DNA of 64,000 nt from Candidatus Pacearchaeota archaeon (GTDB lineage: Archaea > Nanobdellota > Nanobdellia > Pacearchaeales > UBA284), in contig JAWAPZ010000001.1 of assembly GCA_038894195.1 (NCBI GenBank), positions 129,566 through 193,565 of the forward strand. Direction: 5' to 3'. Under the pieces are notes generated by a model that was not told the origin of the DNA, ran no database searches, and was given only the letters and a program-made list of their open reading frames with translations. The position numbers were made by a program, and so were the translations under genes. Below, in pieces: positions 2,571 to 45,600 of this stretch. Numbering within the stretch: the stretch's first letter is position 1; each line of letters starts with the position of its first letter.

Positions 2571-3467
2571 ATGGAAATTTATGATGTTATAATTCTTGGA
2601 GCAGGGCCGGCTGGGATGACAGCTGCACTATACTGTGCAAGATATCAGTTAAAAACACTTGTTTTAGGTAAAGAGATTGGTGGACAAGCAAATTATATCT
2701 ACGTTCTTGAAAATTATCCTGGCATTGAAAAAACTTCAGGCATAGAACTTGTAAAAAAGTTAAAATCACAACTTGAAAAACTAAAAGTTGAAATAAAACA
2801 AGAAGAGGCAATCGACATTAAAAAGGAAAAAATGTGTATAGTAAAAACTCATACCAGGGTTTATTTTTCTAAAACAATGATCCTTGCGCTTGGAACAGAA
2901 AGTAAGAAACTTGGATTAAAAAATGAAAATAAGTTGATTGGTAAAGGAATAAGTTATTGTGCAACTTGCGACGCTCCTTTATTCAAAAATAAAGTTGTCG
3001 CAGTTGTTGGAAGTGGCAATAGTGCTGTTATGACTGCTTTGTTGCTCGCTGAATATGCAAAAAAAGTTTATTTAATTACAAAATATGAAGAAGAAAAAAT
3101 GAAAGCTGAGAATGTTAAGTTAGAAGAAGCAAAGAAAAATACAAAAATTGAAATATTGCGCGGAAATGTTAAAGAGGTCACTGGCAAAAATTTTGTTGAG
3201 GCGATTATTTTAGAGAATGGCAGGAATCTTGAATGCCAAGGAATTTTTGTTGAAATTGGAAAGGTTCCTAGAACTGATCTTGTTAAGCAACTCGAAGTTA
3301 AATTGGATGATAAAGGTTATATTCTAGTTGATAAAGAAATGAAAACTAACGTGGAAGGAATTTTTGCAGCAGGAGATTGTATTGCAAAGTCATTAAGACA
3401 GATTATAACAGCTGCAAGTGATGGTGCTATTGCAGCACATTCTGCCTACAAATTTTTGAAGAAATGA
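2571..3467 (+). CDS. trxB: Thioredoxin reductase
   Basis: FAD motif GAGPAG, redox-active CATCD, NAD(P) motif VVGSGNSA, C-terminal AAGDC. Confidence 0.85.
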   Translation: MEIYDVIILGAGPAGMTAALYCARYQLKTLVLGKEIGGQANYIYVLENYPGIEKTSGIELVKKLKSQLEKLKVEIKQEEAIDIKKEKMCIVKTHTRVYFSKTMILALGTESKKLGLKNENKLIGKGISYCATCDAPLFKNKVVAVVGSGNSAVMTALLLAEYAKKVYLITKYEEEKMKAENVKLEEAKKNTKIEILRGNVKEVTGKNFVEAIILENGRNLECQGIFVEIGKVPRTDLVKQLEVKLDDKGYILVDKEMKTNVEGIFAAGDCIAKSLRQIITAASDGAIAAHSAYKFLKK

Positions 3468-3472
3468 AATAA

Positions 3473-3802
3473 TTACTCAACATAAAATTGGGGATATTTT
3501 TGATGGTCTGGCATCTGATTATCACCTTTTCTTCTTTGGGAATTTTGAAATTCTTTTAACAAATCTGTTGATGAAATTATATCTCCAATATCAACACTGA
3601 TCTTTATTGGATGAACGCAGATGCACTCTATTTTGTTAGACCCCACTTTTTTTACCCTATCAATCAATGTAGCATGATCACAAATTTCTTGATCTATTTT
3701 AGTTAGAGTTCTATCTTTTCCAACGGCTTCGTAATAAGTAATAAGAAATTTATATCTTTCTACTTCTTTCTTAAAATCTTCAAAATTTCTAAATCTATTC
3801 AT
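3473..3802 (-). CDS. Hypothetical protein
   Basis: 109-aa ORF, no recognisable motif. Confidence 0.3.
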   Translation of the reverse strand: MNRFRNFEDFKKEVERYKFLITYYEAVGKDRTLTKIDQEICDHATLIDRVKKVGSNKIECICVHPIKISVDIGDIISSTDLLKEFQNSQRRKGDNQMPDHQKYPQFYVE

Positions 3803-3880: not shown

Positions 3881-4033
3881 GCCCCGATGGTGCAACGGTT
3901 AACATAGAACCCTGTCAGAGCCTTTTAAAAAGCCTCGGGAAACTAGTGCTTTAGGCTACTGAACGGTTCAGATCCGAGTTCGAATATAAGGGTAAACCCT
4001 TGTCAACCCTTAACGAAATTCTCGGTCGGGGCG
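3881..4033 (+). tRNA. Intron-containing tRNA, isotype undetermined; T-loop (59/60) intron plus probable further intron(s)
   Basis: Perfect 7-bp acceptor stem GCCCCGA/TCGGGGC. T-arm CCGAG-TTCGAA[35-nt insert]T-CTCGG. Discriminator G. TATA-like TTTTAAAAAA about 25 nt upstream. D-arm and anticodon arm are not contiguous, implying additional introns. Confidence 0.5.
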
Positions 4034-6884: not shown

Positions 6885-7057
6885 GGGCCCGTAGCTCAGC
6901 CTGGTTAGAGCACTGGCCTTTTAAATAAGGACACTTCCTTATGAACCTTTAAATTAAAGGTAGAAGGAGAAAGCCAGGTGTCGGGGGTTCGAATGATCAG
7001 AAACCTACGGTTTCCGATGCTTTCCCTTGAGGAAAAACGAAAATCCCCTCGGGCCCG
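6885..7057 (+). tRNA. tRNA-Lys(TTT) with two introns: anticodon loop (~6925-6972) and T-loop 59/60 (~6994-7043)
   Basis: Acceptor GGGCCCG/CGGGCCC. D-arm TAGCTCAGCCTGGTTAGAGCA. Anticodon stem CTGGC, loop CTTTTAA, 48-nt intron, then GCCAG. T-arm GGGGG-TTCGAA[50 nt]T-CCCCT. Discriminator G. Confidence 0.75.
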
Positions 7058-7068
7058 TTTTAAGAAAT

Positions 7069-8541
7069 TTATTTTTTAAGATACTCGTGTCTCCAAATAG
7101 GGTCCGTCAATTTTTCAAGCTTCTTATCAAACTCATCTAAAAATTTTTCAAACTCTTTCGATTTTATTGCTAAAGCAGCATCTTTGTCCTCTGGTTTGGC
7201 TCTTTTCGTTAGAATATTTTTCTTGAAGTTTTTGAAATGATCTCTTATCGAGCATGGCATCAACCAGTTACTTGGATCGCTTTGATGTGCAAAACCATAT
7301 TCCTCTTGCCATTTTCTACCGTTCTTGAACAAATCAGAAAATAAAGCATCGGTAATGCTCTTGCCTTTCTTATAAAGGTCTATGATATTATCCTCGTAAT
7401 ATGGGACAAAAACGCACGGCATTATGTTTCCATTCCAGTCTATGTAAAAATAGCCTCCGCGCCTTGCATACGCAATACATCCATCTGCTAGTACTCCGGA
7501 GTTCCAGAAATCTGCTATGCAGTACCTTTTCTTCTCAAGAAGATATTCCCACTTTTTAAGCAATTCAACTCTCTCTTCTGGCGTTAACATCAACTCTTTT
7601 ACAGTTCTTGCTTTCCCGATTGGCATTAACTGAAATAACCATATGTATGTTGCACCAAGTTTCAAGAAAATAAAATCATAAAAATCATCTCTAAGTAAAG
7701 TGCCTATATTTTCTCTTGTTGCTGTCAATGAAATGCCAAACGGAACCCCGGCACGTCTCAAATTATTGGTGGCTTCAAGAATTTTCTTAAATACTCCTTT
7801 GCCTCTCCTTACATCAGTTTCTTTTTCAAAACCCTCTAATGAAATAGCTGGGCTAACATTTCCAAGTCTTGCAAGTCTCTCTGCAACTTCCTCATTAATA
7901 AGTGTTCCATTAGTATAAAACATAAAAAACATGTCAGGATGCTGCTCCCAGATATCAAACAAAGTCTTTCCTTGAGACTGATACATTAATGGTTCACCAC
8001 CACTTATGACCATAAATTTATTCCCTAGCAAATCGTGAGCTTCATTGGCTATTCTTTCTACTACGTTAAATGGTAGTGTTGGTGCTGTATCTTTTGAACT
8101 TGCGTAACAGCCAACGCATCTTAAATTACATCTCTGTGTAGGTGAAAGGACAATGAAACCAGGTGGCCAAATTCCGAAATCCTGTCTAAATTTATCTATA
8201 GTTCTAAGCTCCTTTGCTCCTTTTACCATGTTTCCCTGTACAAAAACATGTACAAGCTTATTGGCTACCTCTTTAGATATGTATCCTTTCTTAAAATTTC
8301 TAACAGAACACGTTAGGAGAGCTCTAGCAAAATTGAACTTCATTAATTTAACTTTTCTTAAGCAGTGTGGGTTCTTTTCAACTATATCTTTATACATTCT
8401 TCTTTCTAGAGAATTGAGAAATATGGTTTGAAGTATTGGCGTAAAAATGGCTTTTTTAAGTAAAGAAACAACAAAGCTTTCTTTAAACTCTCTTTCCTTA
8501 ACCTCTTTCGTACTACCCCCTTCACTTAGCAGGCTTTCCAT
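7069..8541 (-). CDS. Radical SAM / SPASM-domain protein (anaerobic sulfatase-maturase-like) with ~130-aa N-terminal extension
   Basis: CNLRCVGCY CxxxCxxC motif. C-terminal SPASM-like CIAYARRGGYFYIDWNGNIMPC. Confidence 0.8.
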   Translation of the reverse strand: MESLLSEGGSTKEVKEREFKESFVVSLLKKAIFTPILQTIFLNSLERRMYKDIVEKNPHCLRKVKLMKFNFARALLTCSVRNFKKGYISKEVANKLVHVFVQGNMVKGAKELRTIDKFRQDFGIWPPGFIVLSPTQRCNLRCVGCYASSKDTAPTLPFNVVERIANEAHDLLGNKFMVISGGEPLMYQSQGKTLFDIWEQHPDMFFMFYTNGTLINEEVAERLARLGNVSPAISLEGFEKETDVRRGKGVFKKILEATNNLRRAGVPFGISLTATRENIGTLLRDDFYDFIFLKLGATYIWLFQLMPIGKARTVKELMLTPEERVELLKKWEYLLEKKRYCIADFWNSGVLADGCIAYARRGGYFYIDWNGNIMPCVFVPYYEDNIIDLYKKGKSITDALFSDLFKNGRKWQEEYGFAHQSDPSNWLMPCSIRDHFKNFKKNILTKRAKPEDKDAALAIKSKEFEKFLDEFDKKLEKLTDPIWRHEYLKK

Positions 8542-8595
8542 TTTTATACTAAAAATCTGGGGTTTAAAAAGCTTTATTTTGTTTTATAAAATATA

Positions 8596-8625
8596 TCCCT
8601 GGCTCACCCCTCCTGCGCCAGCCCC
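8596..8625. promoter_or_regulatory. GC-rich hairpin (CTGGC...GCCAG) next to a T-run, between trpS stop and the rSAM/SPASM start; possible terminator or attenuator
   Basis: The 5-bp inverted repeat CTGGC...GCCAG within 8598-8620 has a 13-nt loop and is followed on the minus strand by ATATATTTTAT. It is a GC island in an AT-rich spacer. Confidence 0.3.
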
Positions 8626-8631
8626 TATTTT

Positions 8632-9777
8632 TTATATGTTCCAGTGAAAAATGAACTTATCAACCTGTTTTTTTGCTCTTTCTCTTGCTTTTTGATGCTG
8701 TTTCAAGAATATGTTTATTTTTGTTATAAGGTACTCTTTAAGTTCAGAGGTTAGCATAGAGCCTGTTTTATAATCCCTATAAATATCTGCTATTTTTTTG
8801 TCATCTGGCTCAAAGAAATAATTGAGCCATTGATATGAAACATCAACATCGGGATTACCACCTTGCTGTCTGTGTTCTTCTACAGTTGATTTGCCTCCAC
8901 TAAAAGCGTGCCTTGTTATCTTGTCTCTGACTTGCTCTGGCGTATCGGTAGTCCAGATTGTTGAATCAGGGTCGCTTGTTGACATTTTGCTACCATAAGT
9001 TTTTAATCCACTTAGAAATTTGGCGTGTATAATTGAAGGTTTATAGTAACCGAGTTTGGGTAAAACATCTCGCGCAATTCTGAAATGAGGATCTTGGTCT
9101 ATTCCTAAAGGAATTAAGCAAGGGATATTTTTCTTTGAAAGAACACTCGGCAAGAAACAAGGAACTGCCTGCATGGCTGTATAAAAAATAGAGCCTATGT
9201 TCGTTTCATTTGAAAAACCAAAAACAGCTTTGACAGTTGAGAATGTGATCTTTTTAGCAACTTTGCAAGCTTCTTTGAACATTATATTTGCGTGCCTTGT
9301 ATCAATTAAAAAATGTGTTTTTCTGTGATCAAAACCGAGAGCTATTACATCGAGCATGTTTTCATTTGTCCATTTTTGAACTTCATCAAACTCGAGATCT
9401 TCTCGAATCATGAATTTCTCTTCGTCTGGAAATTGAAACCATAGTTCTGCTTGGAATTTTTCTTGCAACCATCTGCAGAAAACCCATGGTAACAAGTGTC
9501 CTATATGTATCTTGCCTGACGGGGCACGACCAGTGTATAAAAAAAATTTATTTCCTCGTTCATATTCATCAAGAAGCCATGTAAGATCTCTGTGAGCTAA
9601 AAAAACTCTTCTTGTCAGCATGAAATGCAGTTCTTTTGCATGTTTCTTAATTCTTTCAAGAATTTCATTGGTTATGGGTTGAATACCAAATTTTTTTATG
9701 AGGTGCTGATAATCTTTTTCGGTCAGCCTGCCTCTAAATTCGTAGGGGGTTAGTTTAGCATCCTGCACATTTTTCAT
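8632..9777 (-). CDS. trpS: Tryptophanyl-tRNA synthetase, archaeal/eukaryotic type
   Basis: HIGH-like GKIHIGH and KMSTS. The N-terminus KLTPYEFRG...KKFGIQPIT is typical of archaeal TrpRS. The ORF is open to 9849; start is more likely MKNVQD at 9777. Confidence 0.85.
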   Translation of the reverse strand: MKNVQDAKLTPYEFRGRLTEKDYQHLIKKFGIQPITNEILERIKKHAKELHFMLTRRVFLAHRDLTWLLDEYERGNKFFLYTGRAPSGKIHIGHLLPWVFCRWLQEKFQAELWFQFPDEEKFMIREDLEFDEVQKWTNENMLDVIALGFDHRKTHFLIDTRHANIMFKEACKVAKKITFSTVKAVFGFSNETNIGSIFYTAMQAVPCFLPSVLSKKNIPCLIPLGIDQDPHFRIARDVLPKLGYYKPSIIHAKFLSGLKTYGSKMSTSDPDSTIWTTDTPEQVRDKITRHAFSGGKSTVEEHRQQGGNPDVDVSYQWLNYFFEPDDKKIADIYRDYKTGSMLTSELKEYLITKINIFLKQHQKARERAKKQVDKFIFHWNI

Positions 9778-9830
9778 CTTACCATGAAGAACAGAGATTT
9801 TATAAATCTTACTTGCATTAAGAGATAAAA

Positions 9831-10250
9831 ATGTTAATAAGAAAAGCAAAAGAGGAAGATAGAAAACAGATTATCAAGCTAGTTGATACGTTATATTGCA
9901 ACTCTCCTTTTATGAAAAAAGAATGGAGAAAAAAATTTAATGAATTTATTCTAGCAACATTTGTTGTTGAAATAAAAAAGAAAATTGTTGGCTACATTGC
10001 TTTTGGTTTTACTAAAGATTCTGTGTACATTGGTGATCTTTATATTTTGCCAGAACATAGAAGAAAGGGACTTGCTACTAGACTTCTCAAGGTAGTTGAA
10101 AAAATAAAAGAGAAATTTAAAAAGGAAAACATTCTTGTAGATTTTAGAGAACATAATAGAGGAGCTAGAAAATTTTATGAAAAGCATGGATTTAAATTTT
10201 TAAAAAAATTTGGGAAGTTAAATCACAATCTTTTAAGATTTAGAAAATGA
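9831..10250 (+). CDS. GNAT family N-acetyltransferase
   Basis: YIAFGF...IGDLYILPEHRRKGLATRLL acetyl-CoA binding motif. Confidence 0.7.
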   Translation: MLIRKAKEEDRKQIIKLVDTLYCNSPFMKKEWRKKFNEFILATFVVEIKKKIVGYIAFGFTKDSVYIGDLYILPEHRRKGLATRLLKVVEKIKEKFKKENILVDFREHNRGARKFYEKHGFKFLKKFGKLNHNLLRFRK

Positions 10251-11278
10251 AACATAATCTTAAAATTACTGTGGTAATTGTTGTAATGTTTATAATAAGT
10301 ATGCTTCTTGGCCTAGTCGTTATTAATTCTTACGACAGATATTTTGGAAAAACTAGCCAGAAAATTGCACAAGAAGCTGCTGAAAAGAATATAACTATAG
10401 AAAAGCCGGATATCTCGTTTGTGCAAGAAACTGTGCCCCCACCGATGGAACCAAAAAGAACAATAGATGTTATTAATATATTGGTAAGTATCCTTATTGC
10501 TATTGCAATAGCTGTTGGGTTATTTTTATTACTATCTAAAATTAAAATTCACTTATTTATTAAAGGATGGTTTGCGATTGTTATTTTTATTTGTCTGGTG
10601 GTTGCACTAACTTTGCTTTTGTACTATATTTTTGGATCACAAAGTTTGTTTAATTTTTTTGGTAAAAAGATTTCTATAGCGGAAATGCTTGCCTTACCTA
10701 TCGCTTTTGTTCTCACTTATTTTAAAATAAAAAAAGGAAACAGTATAATTCATAATGTTTCGGAACTTTTTGTTTATCCTGGACTTGCGGTTATTTTTAT
10801 TCCTATCCTTAATGTTTTGGCTGCTGCTATTTTGTTAATTTTAATTTCAGTGTACGATATGATTGCGGTGTGGAAAACAAAGCATATGCAAGCTATGGCG
10901 AAATTTCAGATAGAGTATTTAAAGATTTTTACTGGTTTTCTCCTACCCTACACAAGTAAAAAAGATAAAGTAAAAATTAAGAAGTTAAAATTAGAACTTA
11001 AAAAAATTAAATCAAAAAAGAAACAGCAAGCTTTTTTAAAAAAACAAAAAATTAAAGTCAATATAGCTGCTCTTGGCGGTGGAGACGTTGCATTCCCCCT
11101 CATATTTATTGGGACTATTTTACTTTCTTATGGTTTAACAGCTGCTTTCACTGTAGTTGGAACAACCACCTTAGCACTTGCCCTCTTGCTTATATTTGCA
11201 AAGAAAGGTAAATTTTATCCTGCAATGCCTTTTTTAAGTGCAGGATGTTTTCTTGGGTTGTTGCTTGTGCTAATCTAG
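10247..11278 (+). CDS. Presenilin / signal-peptide-peptidase-like intramembrane aspartyl protease (A22 family)
   Basis: Multi-TM protein with YD (SVYDMIAVW), GxGD (LGGGDVAFP) and PAL-like (YPAMPFL) motifs in the canonical order. Confidence 0.65.
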   Translation: MKHNLKITVVIVVMFIISMLLGLVVINSYDRYFGKTSQKIAQEAAEKNITIEKPDISFVQETVPPPMEPKRTIDVINILVSILIAIAIAVGLFLLLSKIKIHLFIKGWFAIVIFICLVVALTLLLYYIFGSQSLFNFFGKKISIAEMLALPIAFVLTYFKIKKGNSIIHNVSELFVYPGLAVIFIPILNVLAAAILLILISVYDMIAVWKTKHMQAMAKFQIEYLKIFTGFLLPYTSKKDKVKIKKLKLELKKIKSKKKQQAFLKKQKIKVNIAALGGGDVAFPLIFIGTILLSYGLTAAFTVVGTTTLALALLLIFAKKGKFYPAMPFLSAGCFLGLLLVLI

Positions 11279-11279
11279 T

Positions 11280-11771
11280 TCAATAAACAATCACAACAAG
11301 CAAACCAACAATTTGCGAAAACCTTACTTTGCTATCACTGAATTGAGCATTGTCACCTTTTGTTTTGCAGAACCACCCATCAGAATCATAACCGATTGCA
11401 GTAACACGATGAGAAATTATCTCCTCTCCAGATTTATAAGAGATTATATCCCCAACATGAATCTCTTTAGAGTTTGCCGGTTTAATTTCAATGCCATTTG
11501 CTGTATTGTCTAAGGTTGGGTCCATACTGTTTGTATCGGAATAAGTAACCAGGACAGGATTGTCAAGATAGATGATTACCTTATCCTCCAAAACCTGGAT
11601 CTGATTTTCAGTTATTCTGTCAGAGGGGCTTTTCTTTTCTGTAAGTACAGATAGATGGTCTGTTAAAGATCTACCCTCACGCGAGGCTAATGATGATATA
11701 CACAGGAAAAGAGAAAAAACCACGAAGATTAGGGCAATTGTAAGAAAAATTTTAATTGTTTTTGTTTTCAT
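11280..11771 (-). CDS. Signal peptidase I (S26 family, Sec11-like)
   Basis: N-terminal TM segment. Catalytic-Ser box TNSMDPTL. Confidence 0.7.
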   Translation of the reverse strand: MKTKTIKIFLTIALIFVVFSLFLCISSLASREGRSLTDHLSVLTEKKSPSDRITENQIQVLEDKVIIYLDNPVLVTYSDTNSMDPTLDNTANGIEIKPANSKEIHVGDIISYKSGEEIISHRVTAIGYDSDGWFCKTKGDNAQFSDSKVRFSQIVGLLVVIVY

Positions 11772-11853
11772 TTTCTTATTTTTGACACTTTAAAATGGTT
11801 ACAACTGTTTATAAATTTTTTCTTAAAAAGTTAGGATAAGTAAGGAGTAAAAA

Positions 11854-12453
11854 TTAATAAGCAAAAAAATCAATTTTACACCTTGACATTATTTTATAAA
11901 ATTCCAGGTCTCTTTTGTATTCTGTGTGTTCTTCATATAAAAAAAGGGCTTTTGCCATCCCCTCCCAAAAAAAGAACCATCCTGCCGGCTCTAAAACTAC
12001 AATAAGGACTGCAGAAATGAAACTTCCCTCTAAAAAATGAGTAAATAAAACAATCGCTCCTAAAATCATTAATAGAAACCCAAGCGAAGCAAGAATTAAG
12101 CCATTTTTTCTTTTGTCTCTAACCTCCTTTTCCTTTGCTCTGAAATGCTCCTCAAAGTGATTTTTCAACCTTTTTTTGATAATTCTTTCAATCTTTAAAT
12201 CTCTCTTGTTTTCTGGTATCATAAATTTTAATTCATGAATTCCTGGTCCTTTTTCTCTAACCGCTTTTTTTGCTTCAAGCAAAAAATCGTCTGAAAGAGC
12301 CCTTATAGATAGGTCTCTTGGGTCAAAATCAGAGAATATATCATTGTAGGTATCCAGTAGAATACTTATCTCTGACATGTCTAAAAGATATTTTTTATGC
12401 TTTGCACACTGCTCAAATGATGGTACTTTTAAGATCTTTTCCTCTTTTTCCAT
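11854..12453 (-). CDS. Hypothetical membrane protein
   Basis: 199 aa with two C-terminal TM helices. Confidence 0.35.
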   Translation of the reverse strand: MEKEEKILKVPSFEQCAKHKKYLLDMSEISILLDTYNDIFSDFDPRDLSIRALSDDFLLEAKKAVREKGPGIHELKFMIPENKRDLKIERIIKKRLKNHFEEHFRAKEKEVRDKRKNGLILASLGFLLMILGAIVLFTHFLEGSFISAVLIVVLEPAGWFFFWEGMAKALFLYEEHTEYKRDLEFYKIMSRCKIDFFAY

Positions 12454-12491
12454 GCTTCTAGATAGAAATCATAATTTTTAAGTTTATCGTG

Positions 12492-12534
12492 ATAAGGGCA
12501 CACCTACTTATCAACCCTTAATGAACATTTAACG
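12492..12534 (+). repeat. Free-standing copy of the tRNA-intron-like hairpin element (ATAAGGG...CTTAT-CAACCCTTAA)
   Basis: ATAAGGGCACACCTACTTATCAACCCTTAATGAACATTTAACG resembles the intron of the tRNA at 3985-4019, the Lys anticodon intron and the Ser intron repeat unit. It lies across the 3' end of the aCPSF1 gene and the adjoining spacer. Confidence 0.4.
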
Positions 12535-15324: not shown

Positions 15325-15440
15325 TCCCCGCAGCCGGATTTGAACCGGCAACCTCACGGGTTCTATGAACGCATGCTCGAGTTTCACGCAAAATGATGCA
15401 TAAACTACAGCCGTGCGCTCCACCATTGAGCTATGCGGGG
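15325..15440 (-). tRNA. tRNA-Tyr(GTA) with ~45-nt anticodon-loop intron
   Basis: Reverse complement shows acceptor CCCCGCA/TGCGGGG, D-arm GCTC-AATGGTG-GAGC, anticodon stem CACGG/CCGTG around CTGTAG plus intron, T-arm GCCGG-TTCAAAT-CCGGC. Discriminator A. Confidence 0.75.
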
Positions 15441-19557: not shown

Positions 19558-19657
19558 TAGCCCTGCCAGGATTTTCTTAAGCATCTAAAAAATGCTCGTT
19601 CGAACCTGGGTCCTTTGGGCCAGAGCCAAAGATCCTTGACCGCTAGACTACAGGGCT
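19558..19657 (-). tRNA. tRNA-Gln(CTG) with 27-nt intron at T-loop position 59/60
   Basis: Reverse complement: AGCCCTG/CAGGGCT acceptor. Anticodon stem TTTGG/CCAAA with loop CTCTGGC. T-arm CCAGG-TTCGAA[CGAGCATTTTTTAGATGCTTAAGAAAA]T-CCTGG. Confidence 0.75.
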
Positions 19658-19711: not shown

Positions 19712-19797
19712 GCCTCGGTAGCTCAGTTGGTTAGTAGCGCGACCTTGGTAATTAACTAAAAAGGTCGAGGTCCCGTGTTCAAATCACGGCCGAGGCT
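19712..19797 (+). tRNA. tRNA-Thr(GGT) with short (~11-nt) anticodon-loop intron
   Basis: GCCTCGG/CCGAGGC acceptor. Anticodon stem CGACC/GGTCG enclosing TTGGTAA plus TTAACTAAAAA. T-arm CCGTG-TTCAAAT-CACGG. D-stem pairing is imperfect. Confidence 0.65.
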
Positions 19798-19834
19798 TCA
19801 CAATATTTAAAAACTCGTTAAGCTTGAAAAAAAG

Positions 19835-45402: not shown

Positions 45403-45600
45403 GCCGACGTGGCCCAATGGTACGGCGCCCGCCTTGAGAGCGGGTTCCCGCAAGGGTTTCCAGGTTCGAAAATAAGGAACACATTTCCTTATCAACCTTT
45501 GGAAGAATAAGGAACACATTTCCTTATCAACCTTTGGAAGAATAAGGAACACATTTCCTTATCAACCTTTGAGTTGAAAACGAAAATCCTGGCGTCGGCG
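45403..45600 (+). tRNA. tRNA-Ser(TGA) with ~116-nt intron at T-loop position 59/60
   Basis: Acceptor GCCGACG/CGTCGGC. D-arm GCC-CAATGGTAC-GGC. Anticodon stem CCCGC/GCGGG with loop CTTGAGA. Long variable arm TCCCGCAAGGGT. T-arm CCAGG-TTCGAA[intron]T-CCTGG. Discriminator G. TATA-like TTTTAAAT about 25 nt upstream. Confidence 0.8.
45471..45575 (+). repeat. Three tandem direct repeats of a 35-bp unit inside the tRNA-Ser intron (third copy truncated)
   Basis: The unit AATAAGGAACACATTTCCTTATCAACCTTTGGAAG occupies 45471-45505 and 45506-45540. Copy 3 (45541-45570) diverges into GAGTTGAAAACGAAAA. Each unit has the hairpin TAAGGAA...TTCCTTA. Confidence 0.9.

Follow-up and report, generated by a model that had tools for sequence, protein, structure and literature searches.

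A 26-base element made of a hairpin and a tail, ATAAGG-loop-CCTTAT-SAACCYTT, recurs in tRNA introns and in intergenic DNA of an archaeon assigned to Candidatus Pacearchaeota, a DPANN group, and we consider it probable that a family of very short mobile introns in DPANN archaea is built around this element. The DNA analyzed here, which we call the window, is a 64-kb stretch of contig JAWAPZ010000001.1, and copy counts for the source genome cover this window. It carries six copies of the element at four loci, all on the plus strand. One copy is located in a T-loop intron of tRNA-Asp (3986-4011), one in an anticodon intron of tRNA-Lys (6925-6950), three in a T-loop intron of tRNA-Ser (45472-45500, 45507-45535, and 45542-45570), and one between genes (12492-12519). 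A first-pass annotation, made without database searches, had already noted that the hairpin recurs in a canonical intron, in non-canonical introns, and in an intergenic copy. Every copy it named is indeed present and stands above chance, although the range it gave (6925-12534) leaves out two of the four loci (3985-4019 and 45471-45586).

The strict pattern ATAAGGN{4,14}CAACCYTT matches twice in the window where 0.02 matches are expected, and ATAAGGN{3,16}CCTTRT matches nine times, with both strands counted, against an expectation of 0.32. A mismatch-tolerant pattern recovers exactly the six known copies and no others in 64 kb, compared with a mean of 0.73 in 100 first-order Markov resamples. 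The tail alone (SAACCYTTAA, one mismatch allowed) is not enriched in the window, with 34 matches versus 31 expected, and the signal resides in the hairpin and the tail combined. The inverted repeat spans 6-7 bp, and its arms are spaced 4 to 9 nt apart. The enrichment over shuffled sequence disposes of the low-complexity coincidence that the first-pass annotation had named as a threat to its proposal. Family members elsewhere were likewise gathered with mismatch-tolerant regular expressions and resampling; these search patterns fix most stem and tail positions, and conservation figures at those positions are biased as a result.

The three tRNA genes that carry the element become ordinary once their inserts are removed. 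The gene for tRNA-Asp(GTC) (3881..4033, plus strand; exons 3881-3917, 3964-3984, and 4020-4033) has introns at positions 37/38 and 59/60 and yields a spliced cloverleaf of 72 nt. Its 59/60 intron, located in the T loop, is 35 nt long (3985..4019) and reads T + ATAAGGGTAAACCCTTGTCAACCCTT (3986-4011) + AA + CGAA + AT. The gene for tRNA-Lys(TTT) (6885..7057, plus strand; exons 6885-6923, 6972-6993, and 7044-7057) is also interrupted at 37/38 and 59/60, with a spliced product of 75 nt. In this gene the element resides in the 48-nt anticodon-loop intron at 37/38 (6924..6971) as ATAAGGACACTTCCTTATGAACCTTT at 6925-6950, followed by a second hairpin, ACCTTTAAATTAAAGGT. The gene for tRNA-Ser(TGA) (45403..45600, plus strand; exons 45403-45470 and 45587-45600) has a single intron at 59/60 and a spliced product of 82 nt. 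That intron is 116 nt long (45471..45586), is composed of three head-to-tail units of AATAAGGAACACATTTCCTTATCAACCTTTGGAAG, and terminates in GAGTTGAAAACGAAAA. Tandem Repeats Finder reports this array as 2.9 copies with a period of 35 and 100% identity (45471-45571). All three products were spliced by hand and then folded by ARAGORN, which returned canonical cloverleafs for Asp, Lys, and Ser.

In each of the three element-bearing introns, ATAAGG begins at intron base 2, immediately after the third base of the 5′ bulge, and the splice sites are ambiguous by 1 nt due to a repeated A or T. The minimum-free-energy fold of the Asp T-loop intron places, after the T-stem, a 4-bp helix of TTCG with CGAA. 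This helix is flanked by a 3-nt bulge (ATT) on its 3′ side and by four unpaired nucleotides (AATA) and one bulged A on its 5′ side, and TAAGGGT pairs with a distal ACCCTTA. The predicted structure is near-canonical for a bulge-helix-bulge motif, which is the substrate form expected for archaeal splicing. In the folds of the Ser and Lys 37/38 introns, a local hairpin (ATAAGGA...TCCTTAT) adjoins the 5′ bulge to give a relaxed form of the motif, and the tail pairs differently in different copies. The Ser fold retains the T-stem, the TTCG/CGAA helix, and bulges of AAA and AAT; this pairing was read from the sequence and the fold of the window gene rather than from the table of T-loop family members discussed below.

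Several other introns in tRNA genes of the window are devoid of the element. The second intron of tRNA-Lys, a 50-nt T-loop intron at 6994-7043, is one such case, and another is the T-loop intron of a tRNA-Gln(CTG) gene (19559-19656, minus strand) that is missed by both ARAGORN and Rfam. These two introns keep the same general plan of bulge, hairpin, complementary block, and bulge. Another intron-bearing tRNA is evident on the plus strand near 19.75 kb (about 19718-19800), and a tRNA with a long anticodon-region intron (15325-15440, minus strand) is detected by Rfam only. Standard tools see only two tRNAs in the entire window. The invisibility of the host tRNAs to standard tRNA finders helps explain why DPANN tRNA sets can appear incomplete.

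Comparison with close relatives provides an indication of when the element arrived. The closest relatives, judged by identity of the aCPSF1 protein, are contigs L002 (82%), L006 (80%), and L008 (78%), and the gene order around aCPSF1 is conserved in all three. The tRNA-Asp gene is intronless in L002 and L008, and the L002 gene differs by only 1 nt from the spliced Asp product of the window. The tRNA-Lys gene of L002 has an intron elsewhere in the anticodon arm plus an unrelated T-loop intron, and that of L008 has no intron; the element at Lys 37/38 is absent from both. Likewise, no element follows aCPSF1 in L002, L006, or L008, and none is found anywhere in their syntenic 22-kb loci. The absence of the element at orthologous sites, which the first-pass annotation had suggested looking for, argues that the insertions in tRNA-Asp, in tRNA-Lys, and beside aCPSF1 are recent and lineage-specific. 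We assume that the tRNA-Ser insertion is equally recent.

The intergenic copy (12492..12526, plus strand) is free-standing and partly decayed. It reads ATAAGGGCACACCTACTTATCAACCCTT + AA + TGAA + C, which amounts to one intron length, and it is also present in the Logan assembly of run SRR27730018 (L001). The first-pass annotation had this copy, given as 12492-12534, straddling the 3′ end of the aCPSF1 gene. However, the similarity stops at about 12526 and the aCPSF1 stop codon is at 12529-12531 (minus strand), and therefore the copy sits in the spacer between that stop codon and the start (12453, minus strand) of an open reading frame (ORF) of 199 amino acids. Of the earlier range, only the tail reaches the gene, and the copy has the antisense orientation relative to both neighbors. 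Its layout is that of a T-loop intron of the TTCA type, and it matches an intron in a Woesearchaeota tRNA-Ser gene (L108) through CAACCCTTAATGAA, with ATAAGGG and 18 consecutive bases, TTATCAACCCTTAATGAA, in common. It begins at what would be intron base 2, ends approximately at the 3′ splice site, and has no exon-like flanks.

A tRNA hidden at this site can be set aside, since none was found by Rfam at E<=10 or by a scan in which the element plus 0-74 downstream bases were deleted before running ARAGORN, a procedure that is blind to tRNAs with two introns such as tRNA-Lys of the window. An mRNA intron was also rejected. By inspection, no bulge-helix-bulge motif is present around the copy, where the upstream TATC-GTG has no matching GATA downstream and no 4-nt complementary helix can form, and the sequence folds no better than shuffles on either strand (z-scores of -0.08 and +1.03). 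We read this copy as a dead, intron-length insertion.

No Pfam family matches the 199-amino-acid ORF beside this copy (11854-12453, minus strand), and the ORF is confined to this lineage. Its place in L002 is taken by a 360-amino-acid MJ0711_N protein, which is unrelated to it, so that kinship between the two genes was discarded, and in L006 and L008 there is only a spacer of 170-210 bp. The spacers following aCPSF1 in L006 (11888-12095) and L008 (11888-12053) have in common a short block, TTGGTCTTCGGAT, with similar flanks, and this block could encode a small RNA or act as a regulatory site.

The element extends well beyond the source genome. A scan of a genome collection returned at least 115 loci, most of which are chance bacterial matches, and a metagenome scan, which is complete, added many further copies; contig taxon labels are as given by depositors. 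Among the genome-collection matches listed, 13 of 115 are archaeal, mostly from DPANN. These archaeal matches have a perfect CCTTAT in 11 of 13 cases versus 24 of 102 for the bacterial matches listed, and an extra G-C pair in 7 of 13 versus 3 of 102.

Copies in tRNA T loops form a coherent family with seven single-unit members and two introns with tandem units. Outside the window, the 59/60 hosts include tRNA-Ser(GCT), tRNA-Pro, one group of probably orthologous tRNAs, and tRNA-Pro(CGG) on contig L013. All single-unit copies conform to TTCR-AAN-[26-nt element]-AW-[4 nt]-3 nt-T-stem, which corresponds to an intron of 35 nt. The 4-nt block tracks the T loop that it follows. TTCG is accompanied by CGAA in both cases in the table, and TTCA by TGAA in three of five, with the relaxed versions GGAA and TGAT in the other two. 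The T-loop intron of the L013 tRNA-Pro(CGG) gene consists of the Ser unit of the window twice in tandem, with 97% identity over 70 nt. Anticodon-arm introns at other positions also carry the element (L140, L190, and a second copy on L173). Thus, near-identical elements occupy different positions in non-orthologous tRNAs, namely Asp 59/60, Lys 37/38, and Ser 59/60 in the window, and, among others, tRNA-Ser(GCT), tRNA-Pro, and a Lys-like anticodon arm elsewhere.

The hosts are not limited to tRNAs. RNase P RNA carries the element in one Woesearchaeota contig and one Pacearchaeota contig, in apical loops at different sites, and both copies are inserts relative to Rfam RF00373. Because no bulge-helix-bulge motif is seen at these two copies, the mature RNA probably still contains them. 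The element also lies about 70 to 95 nt upstream of 23S in four related rRNA operons, inside a conserved block. Other copies are intergenic, 5′-proximal, or 3′-proximal and occur in both orientations, and one copy lies antisense inside a canonical tRNA intron. One inverted pair of copies has a compensatory A-T to G-C change at stem pair 1 together with longer common flanks, and one copy, on L175, adjoins repeats of a tRNA 3′ end that resemble attachment (att) sites. On other DPANN contigs, the 26-mer ATAAGGGTAAACCCTTATCAACCCTT is found unchanged in three tRNA T-loops, one anticodon arm, and RNase P RNA, which makes five contexts, and a variant whose loop is GCAGTCTGC is present in three contexts. 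That unrelated loci have the same loops suggests that the element has been copied. The suggestion in the first-pass annotation of a small mobile, intron-like module has therefore gained considerable support from the occupation of 37/38 and 59/60 in non-orthologous tRNAs and of a site outside any tRNA, the absence from relatives, and the identity of the 26-mer in five contexts.

Two of these loci have additional features. On L175, a block of 21-22 nt matching the 3′ end of a minus-strand tRNA, ATAGCCYYGAGCAGATTC..., is present in three direct copies between 1200 and 1440, along with a repeated 23-nt block. These look like the attachment-site repeats of integrating elements, and one of them abuts the element copy. 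The conserved block upstream of 23S (L149 4340-4500, aligned with L159, L192, and L180) contains ATGAAGTTCAGGATTGAAAC and TTCAATGATACAGGTAGAGAA, and it may be a small RNA or part of a 23S processing stem.

If the element is indeed the core of a mobile intron, then the insert would bring everything needed for its own removal by the archaeal splicing endonuclease. One variable base would complete the three-base 5′ bulge, and ATAAGG(G) would make the helix beside this bulge, its partner being CCTTAT in a local hairpin or the second CCCTTA. In T-loop copies, the 3′ end (AW + YGAA + 2 nt) would pair with the TTCR of the T loop to create the central 4-bp helix and the second bulge. Cuts in both bulges and ligation of the exons would then restore a normal tRNA. 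Non-canonical 59/60 introns of ARMAN-2 and other DPANN archaea are cleaved by broad-specificity endonucleases. The T loop would be a favored site because every tRNA has TTCRAAT, so that a copy arriving at 59/60 could be spliced at once.

The same scheme offers a plausible history for the window. In this lineage, the element would have recently entered tRNA-Asp at 59/60 and tRNA-Lys at 37/38, the copy at Ser 59/60 would have multiplied to three units, and one exon-free, intron-length copy would have been left to decay in a spacer. Elsewhere in DPANN, tolerant sites would include the apical loops of RNase P RNA, the pre-23S spacer, and intergenic DNA. Copying might occur when an excised, perhaps circular, intron is copied back into DNA, or through transposition or recombination of a palindromic DNA element. 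An intermediate that is free and has the length of an intron is suggested by the free-standing copy of that same length and by the tandem units, and the presence of both orientations at intergenic sites suggests DNA-level events. Target-site duplication was considered as the origin of the splice helix and rejected. The 3′ block in T-loop copies is complementary to the T loop (TTCA with TGAA) rather than a repeat of it, and a simple duplication of the target therefore cannot explain the helix.

Several observations weigh against the proposal that the element is a mobile intron. No consistent target-site duplication flanks the copies, and only isolated possible duplications are evident, such as ATAGCCYYGAGCAGATTCTCAC in L175 and, by eye, ATGAAA in L188. 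A Pfam search of the 40 ORFs of the window revealed no domain of a transposase, integrase, reverse transcriptase, splicing endonuclease, or ligase. Function might account for how strongly stem and tail are conserved among DPANN groups, and likewise for the stable inheritance of the element at one spacer site in four related rRNA operons. Excision of the element introns is predicted from structure alone, and the Ser triplication is seen in one assembly only, although the two-unit array on L013 lends it indirect support. Furthermore, the intergenic copy is by itself only modestly significant under the mismatch-tolerant pattern, and it owes its weight to the extended match with T-loop introns.

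It is conceivable, though on balance doubtful, that the element is purely a DNA-level palindrome of the repetitive extragenic palindromic (REP) or miniature inverted-repeat transposable element (MITE) type, moved by a transposase encoded elsewhere, and that the tRNA copies are spliceable accidents. Consistent with this explanation are the short inverted repeat, the presence of copies in either orientation between genes and of one antisense copy within an intron, the inverted pair with its longer common flanks, and the copy beside att-like repeats of a tRNA 3′ end. Unrelated bacteria also have longer palindromes built on the same core. However, the 3′ block of T-loop copies is complementary to the T loop (TTCA/TGAA) and not a direct repeat of it, no consistent target-site duplication is seen, and no transposase is present among the 40 ORFs of the window. 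In addition, the variable arm spacing of 4 to 9 nt favors a hairpin over a site recognized in double-stranded DNA.

A functional role for the RNA is an unlikely alternative on present evidence, yet it deserves consideration. The hairpin and tail might constitute a module through which stable-RNA precursors (tRNA, rRNA, and RNase P RNA) bind a DPANN protein or RNA, for example a helper of the endonuclease or ligase, or a factor that marks excised RNA, and its recurrence would then be due to selection. Stem and tail sequences are conserved while loops vary, stem pair 1 exhibits the compensatory A-T to G-C change, and pair 7 alternates between G-C and A-T. Moreover, all six copies in RNase P RNA and pre-23S spacers are in the sense orientation, the same spacer position is kept in the four related rRNA operons, and the element has a fixed start right after the 5′ bulge in introns. 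Nevertheless, the orthologous tRNAs of close relatives work without the element, the second tRNA-Lys intron and the tRNA-Gln intron in the window lack it, and the two RNase P RNAs carry it at two different sites. Identical loops at unrelated loci indicate copying, and the tail pairing differs among copies. Orientation is also difficult to reconcile with a binding site, given that intergenic copies face both ways, one copy is antisense within a tRNA intron, and the intergenic copy of the window is antisense to both of its neighbors. It is possible that a binding role could hold alongside mobility.

Finally, a chance similarity of AT-rich, low-complexity sequence, or an intergenic copy that is part of an unrecognized tRNA, is very improbable: in its favor are a G+C content of 33% in the window, a tail that by itself shows no enrichment, and the 0.73 matches per window expected with the mismatch-tolerant pattern, but these points are outweighed by the expectation of 0.02 under the strict pattern, the run of 18 consecutive bases that the intergenic copy has in common with the Woesearchaeota T-loop intron beyond ATAAGGG, the absence of a tRNA at that copy in the Rfam (E<=10) and splice-and-scan searches, and the sharp difference between archaeal and chance bacterial matches among those listed.

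In bacteria, REP elements and MITEs combine a short palindromic repeat with a conserved extension that is not palindromic, and they are found between genes in many copies and in both orientations. The DPANN element is similar in having an inverted repeat, a non-palindromic tail, multiple copies, and both orientations. Unlike these systems, it has no associated transposase (among the 40 ORFs of the window) and no target duplication was found for it, and its tRNA copies include a splice helix that complements the target and would presumably be excised from the RNA. Another relevant precedent is the archaeal tRNA-Trp intron, which houses a C/D-box guide RNA. In both cases a conserved sequence, functional in the case of tRNA-Trp, is housed in a tRNA intron. 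However, boxes C (RUGAUGA) and D (CUGA) and tandem sheared G-A pairs are absent from the element sequence and Rfam has no match, and we therefore rejected a C/D-box RNA, a K-turn, and any Rfam family as its identity.

A model of intron gain that involves a 1.8-kb recombinase-encoding element also has parallels with our observations, as it features gain over short evolutionary times and tRNA fragments and repeats near insertions, as on L175. The unit described here is only 26 to 35 nt long, in contrast, and has no recombinase nearby. Transposition of tRNA introns has been inferred for Thermoproteales (Fujishima et al. 2010, Mol Biol Evol 27:2233, via PMC4090602). By analogy, the DPANN element would be a counterpart of this process and the same kind of phenomenon. 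As summarized there, introns were gained recently relative to speciation and spliceability requires a bulge-helix-bulge motif, as would be true here. The DPANN family differs from the Thermoproteales introns in its hosts (Pacearchaeota and relatives), in its defined 26-nt hairpin and tail, in its fixed 35-nt T-loop unit, in its tandem arrays, and in having further copies between genes, in the rRNA spacer, and in RNase P RNA. DPANN archaea are known to have non-canonical 59/60 introns (PMC5829648), and the introns discussed here agree with them in host superphylum, in the T-loop 59/60 position, and in the relaxed bulge-helix-bulge form (hBH or HBh′). Unlike our family, those introns are not credited with a shared hairpin and tail, non-tRNA copies, or spread between tRNAs in the parts of that article consulted. 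We found no description in the literature of the shared hairpin-tail module, its non-tRNA copies, or its tandem units.

It is tempting to speculate further, though we do so tentatively and consider the idea a long way from established, that the element itself actively drives the gain of introns throughout DPANN. The 35-nt intron, circularized by ligase, might be copied back into DNA, with rolling-circle copying yielding tandem units. It would land wherever its 3′ end can pair, chiefly in T loops but also between genes, in rRNA spacers, and in RNase P RNA, and it may cross DPANN lineages. If true, the long-unexplained spread of archaeal tRNA introns would for the first time be linked to a defined sequence and to an intermediate that can be tested. 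To our knowledge, no mobile unit or intermediate has been defined for the multiplication of archaeal tRNA introns since the Thermoproteales introns were inferred to transpose. The DPANN unit is short, has sharp limits (26 nt, or 35 nt when the splice helix is counted), and is represented by recent insertions, an exon-free copy, tandem multimers, and non-tRNA copies, and the question of intron spread is therefore experimentally approachable.

A number of additional observations were made during the analysis. The Pfam scan of the 40 ORFs of the window identified archaeal housekeeping genes, including those for aCPSF1/FttA, proteasome subunits, exosome subunits, and aminoacyl-tRNA synthetases. 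On three contigs, the element is located at the 5′ edge of GC-rich, apparently structured sequence (L018 at about 1730-1900, minus-strand read; L120 at 3614-3800; L129 at about 746-900, minus-strand read). Two of these contigs are labeled Micrarchaeota and L129 is unlabeled, and the structured sequences of L018 and L129 match no Rfam family at E<=0.01. Metagenome contig L171 contains a group I intron (3153-3479; Rfam RF00028) and also has an element-like hairpin directly after an ORF.

A scan of a viral collection returned only giant-virus arrays and chance matches, with no archaeal virus among them. Contigs labeled as giant viruses (L196 at 1243-1350, L130, L132, L139, L145, L156, L197, and L198) contain tandem arrays of AAGGGAAATTCCCTTATGAACCCTTTT, which have the same hairpin-plus-tail pattern as the element; the L196 array has four copies with a period of 27 nt. 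One giant-virus 27-mer matches, base for base, the copy located in the rRNA spacer of an archaeal contig (L192). This likeness may reflect a real relationship or chance resemblance between AT-rich palindromes.

Repeats matching the search pattern are also present in Bacteroidota contigs (L014, L052, L064, L077, L116, L170, and L185) and in L137, L141, L144, and L195. In the longer bacterial palindromes, which have the form AAAGGTTGATAAGG-N-CCTTATCAACCTTT, a complement lies upstream and pairs with the tail. A terminator-like sequence, ATAAGGGGCTGCGGCCCCTTATCAACCCTTGGGTTTTT, is conserved and recurs as well, and one of the contigs that carry it (L195) is from a human-gut metagenome. These bacterial palindromes and terminator-like repeats probably represent unrelated repeat families.

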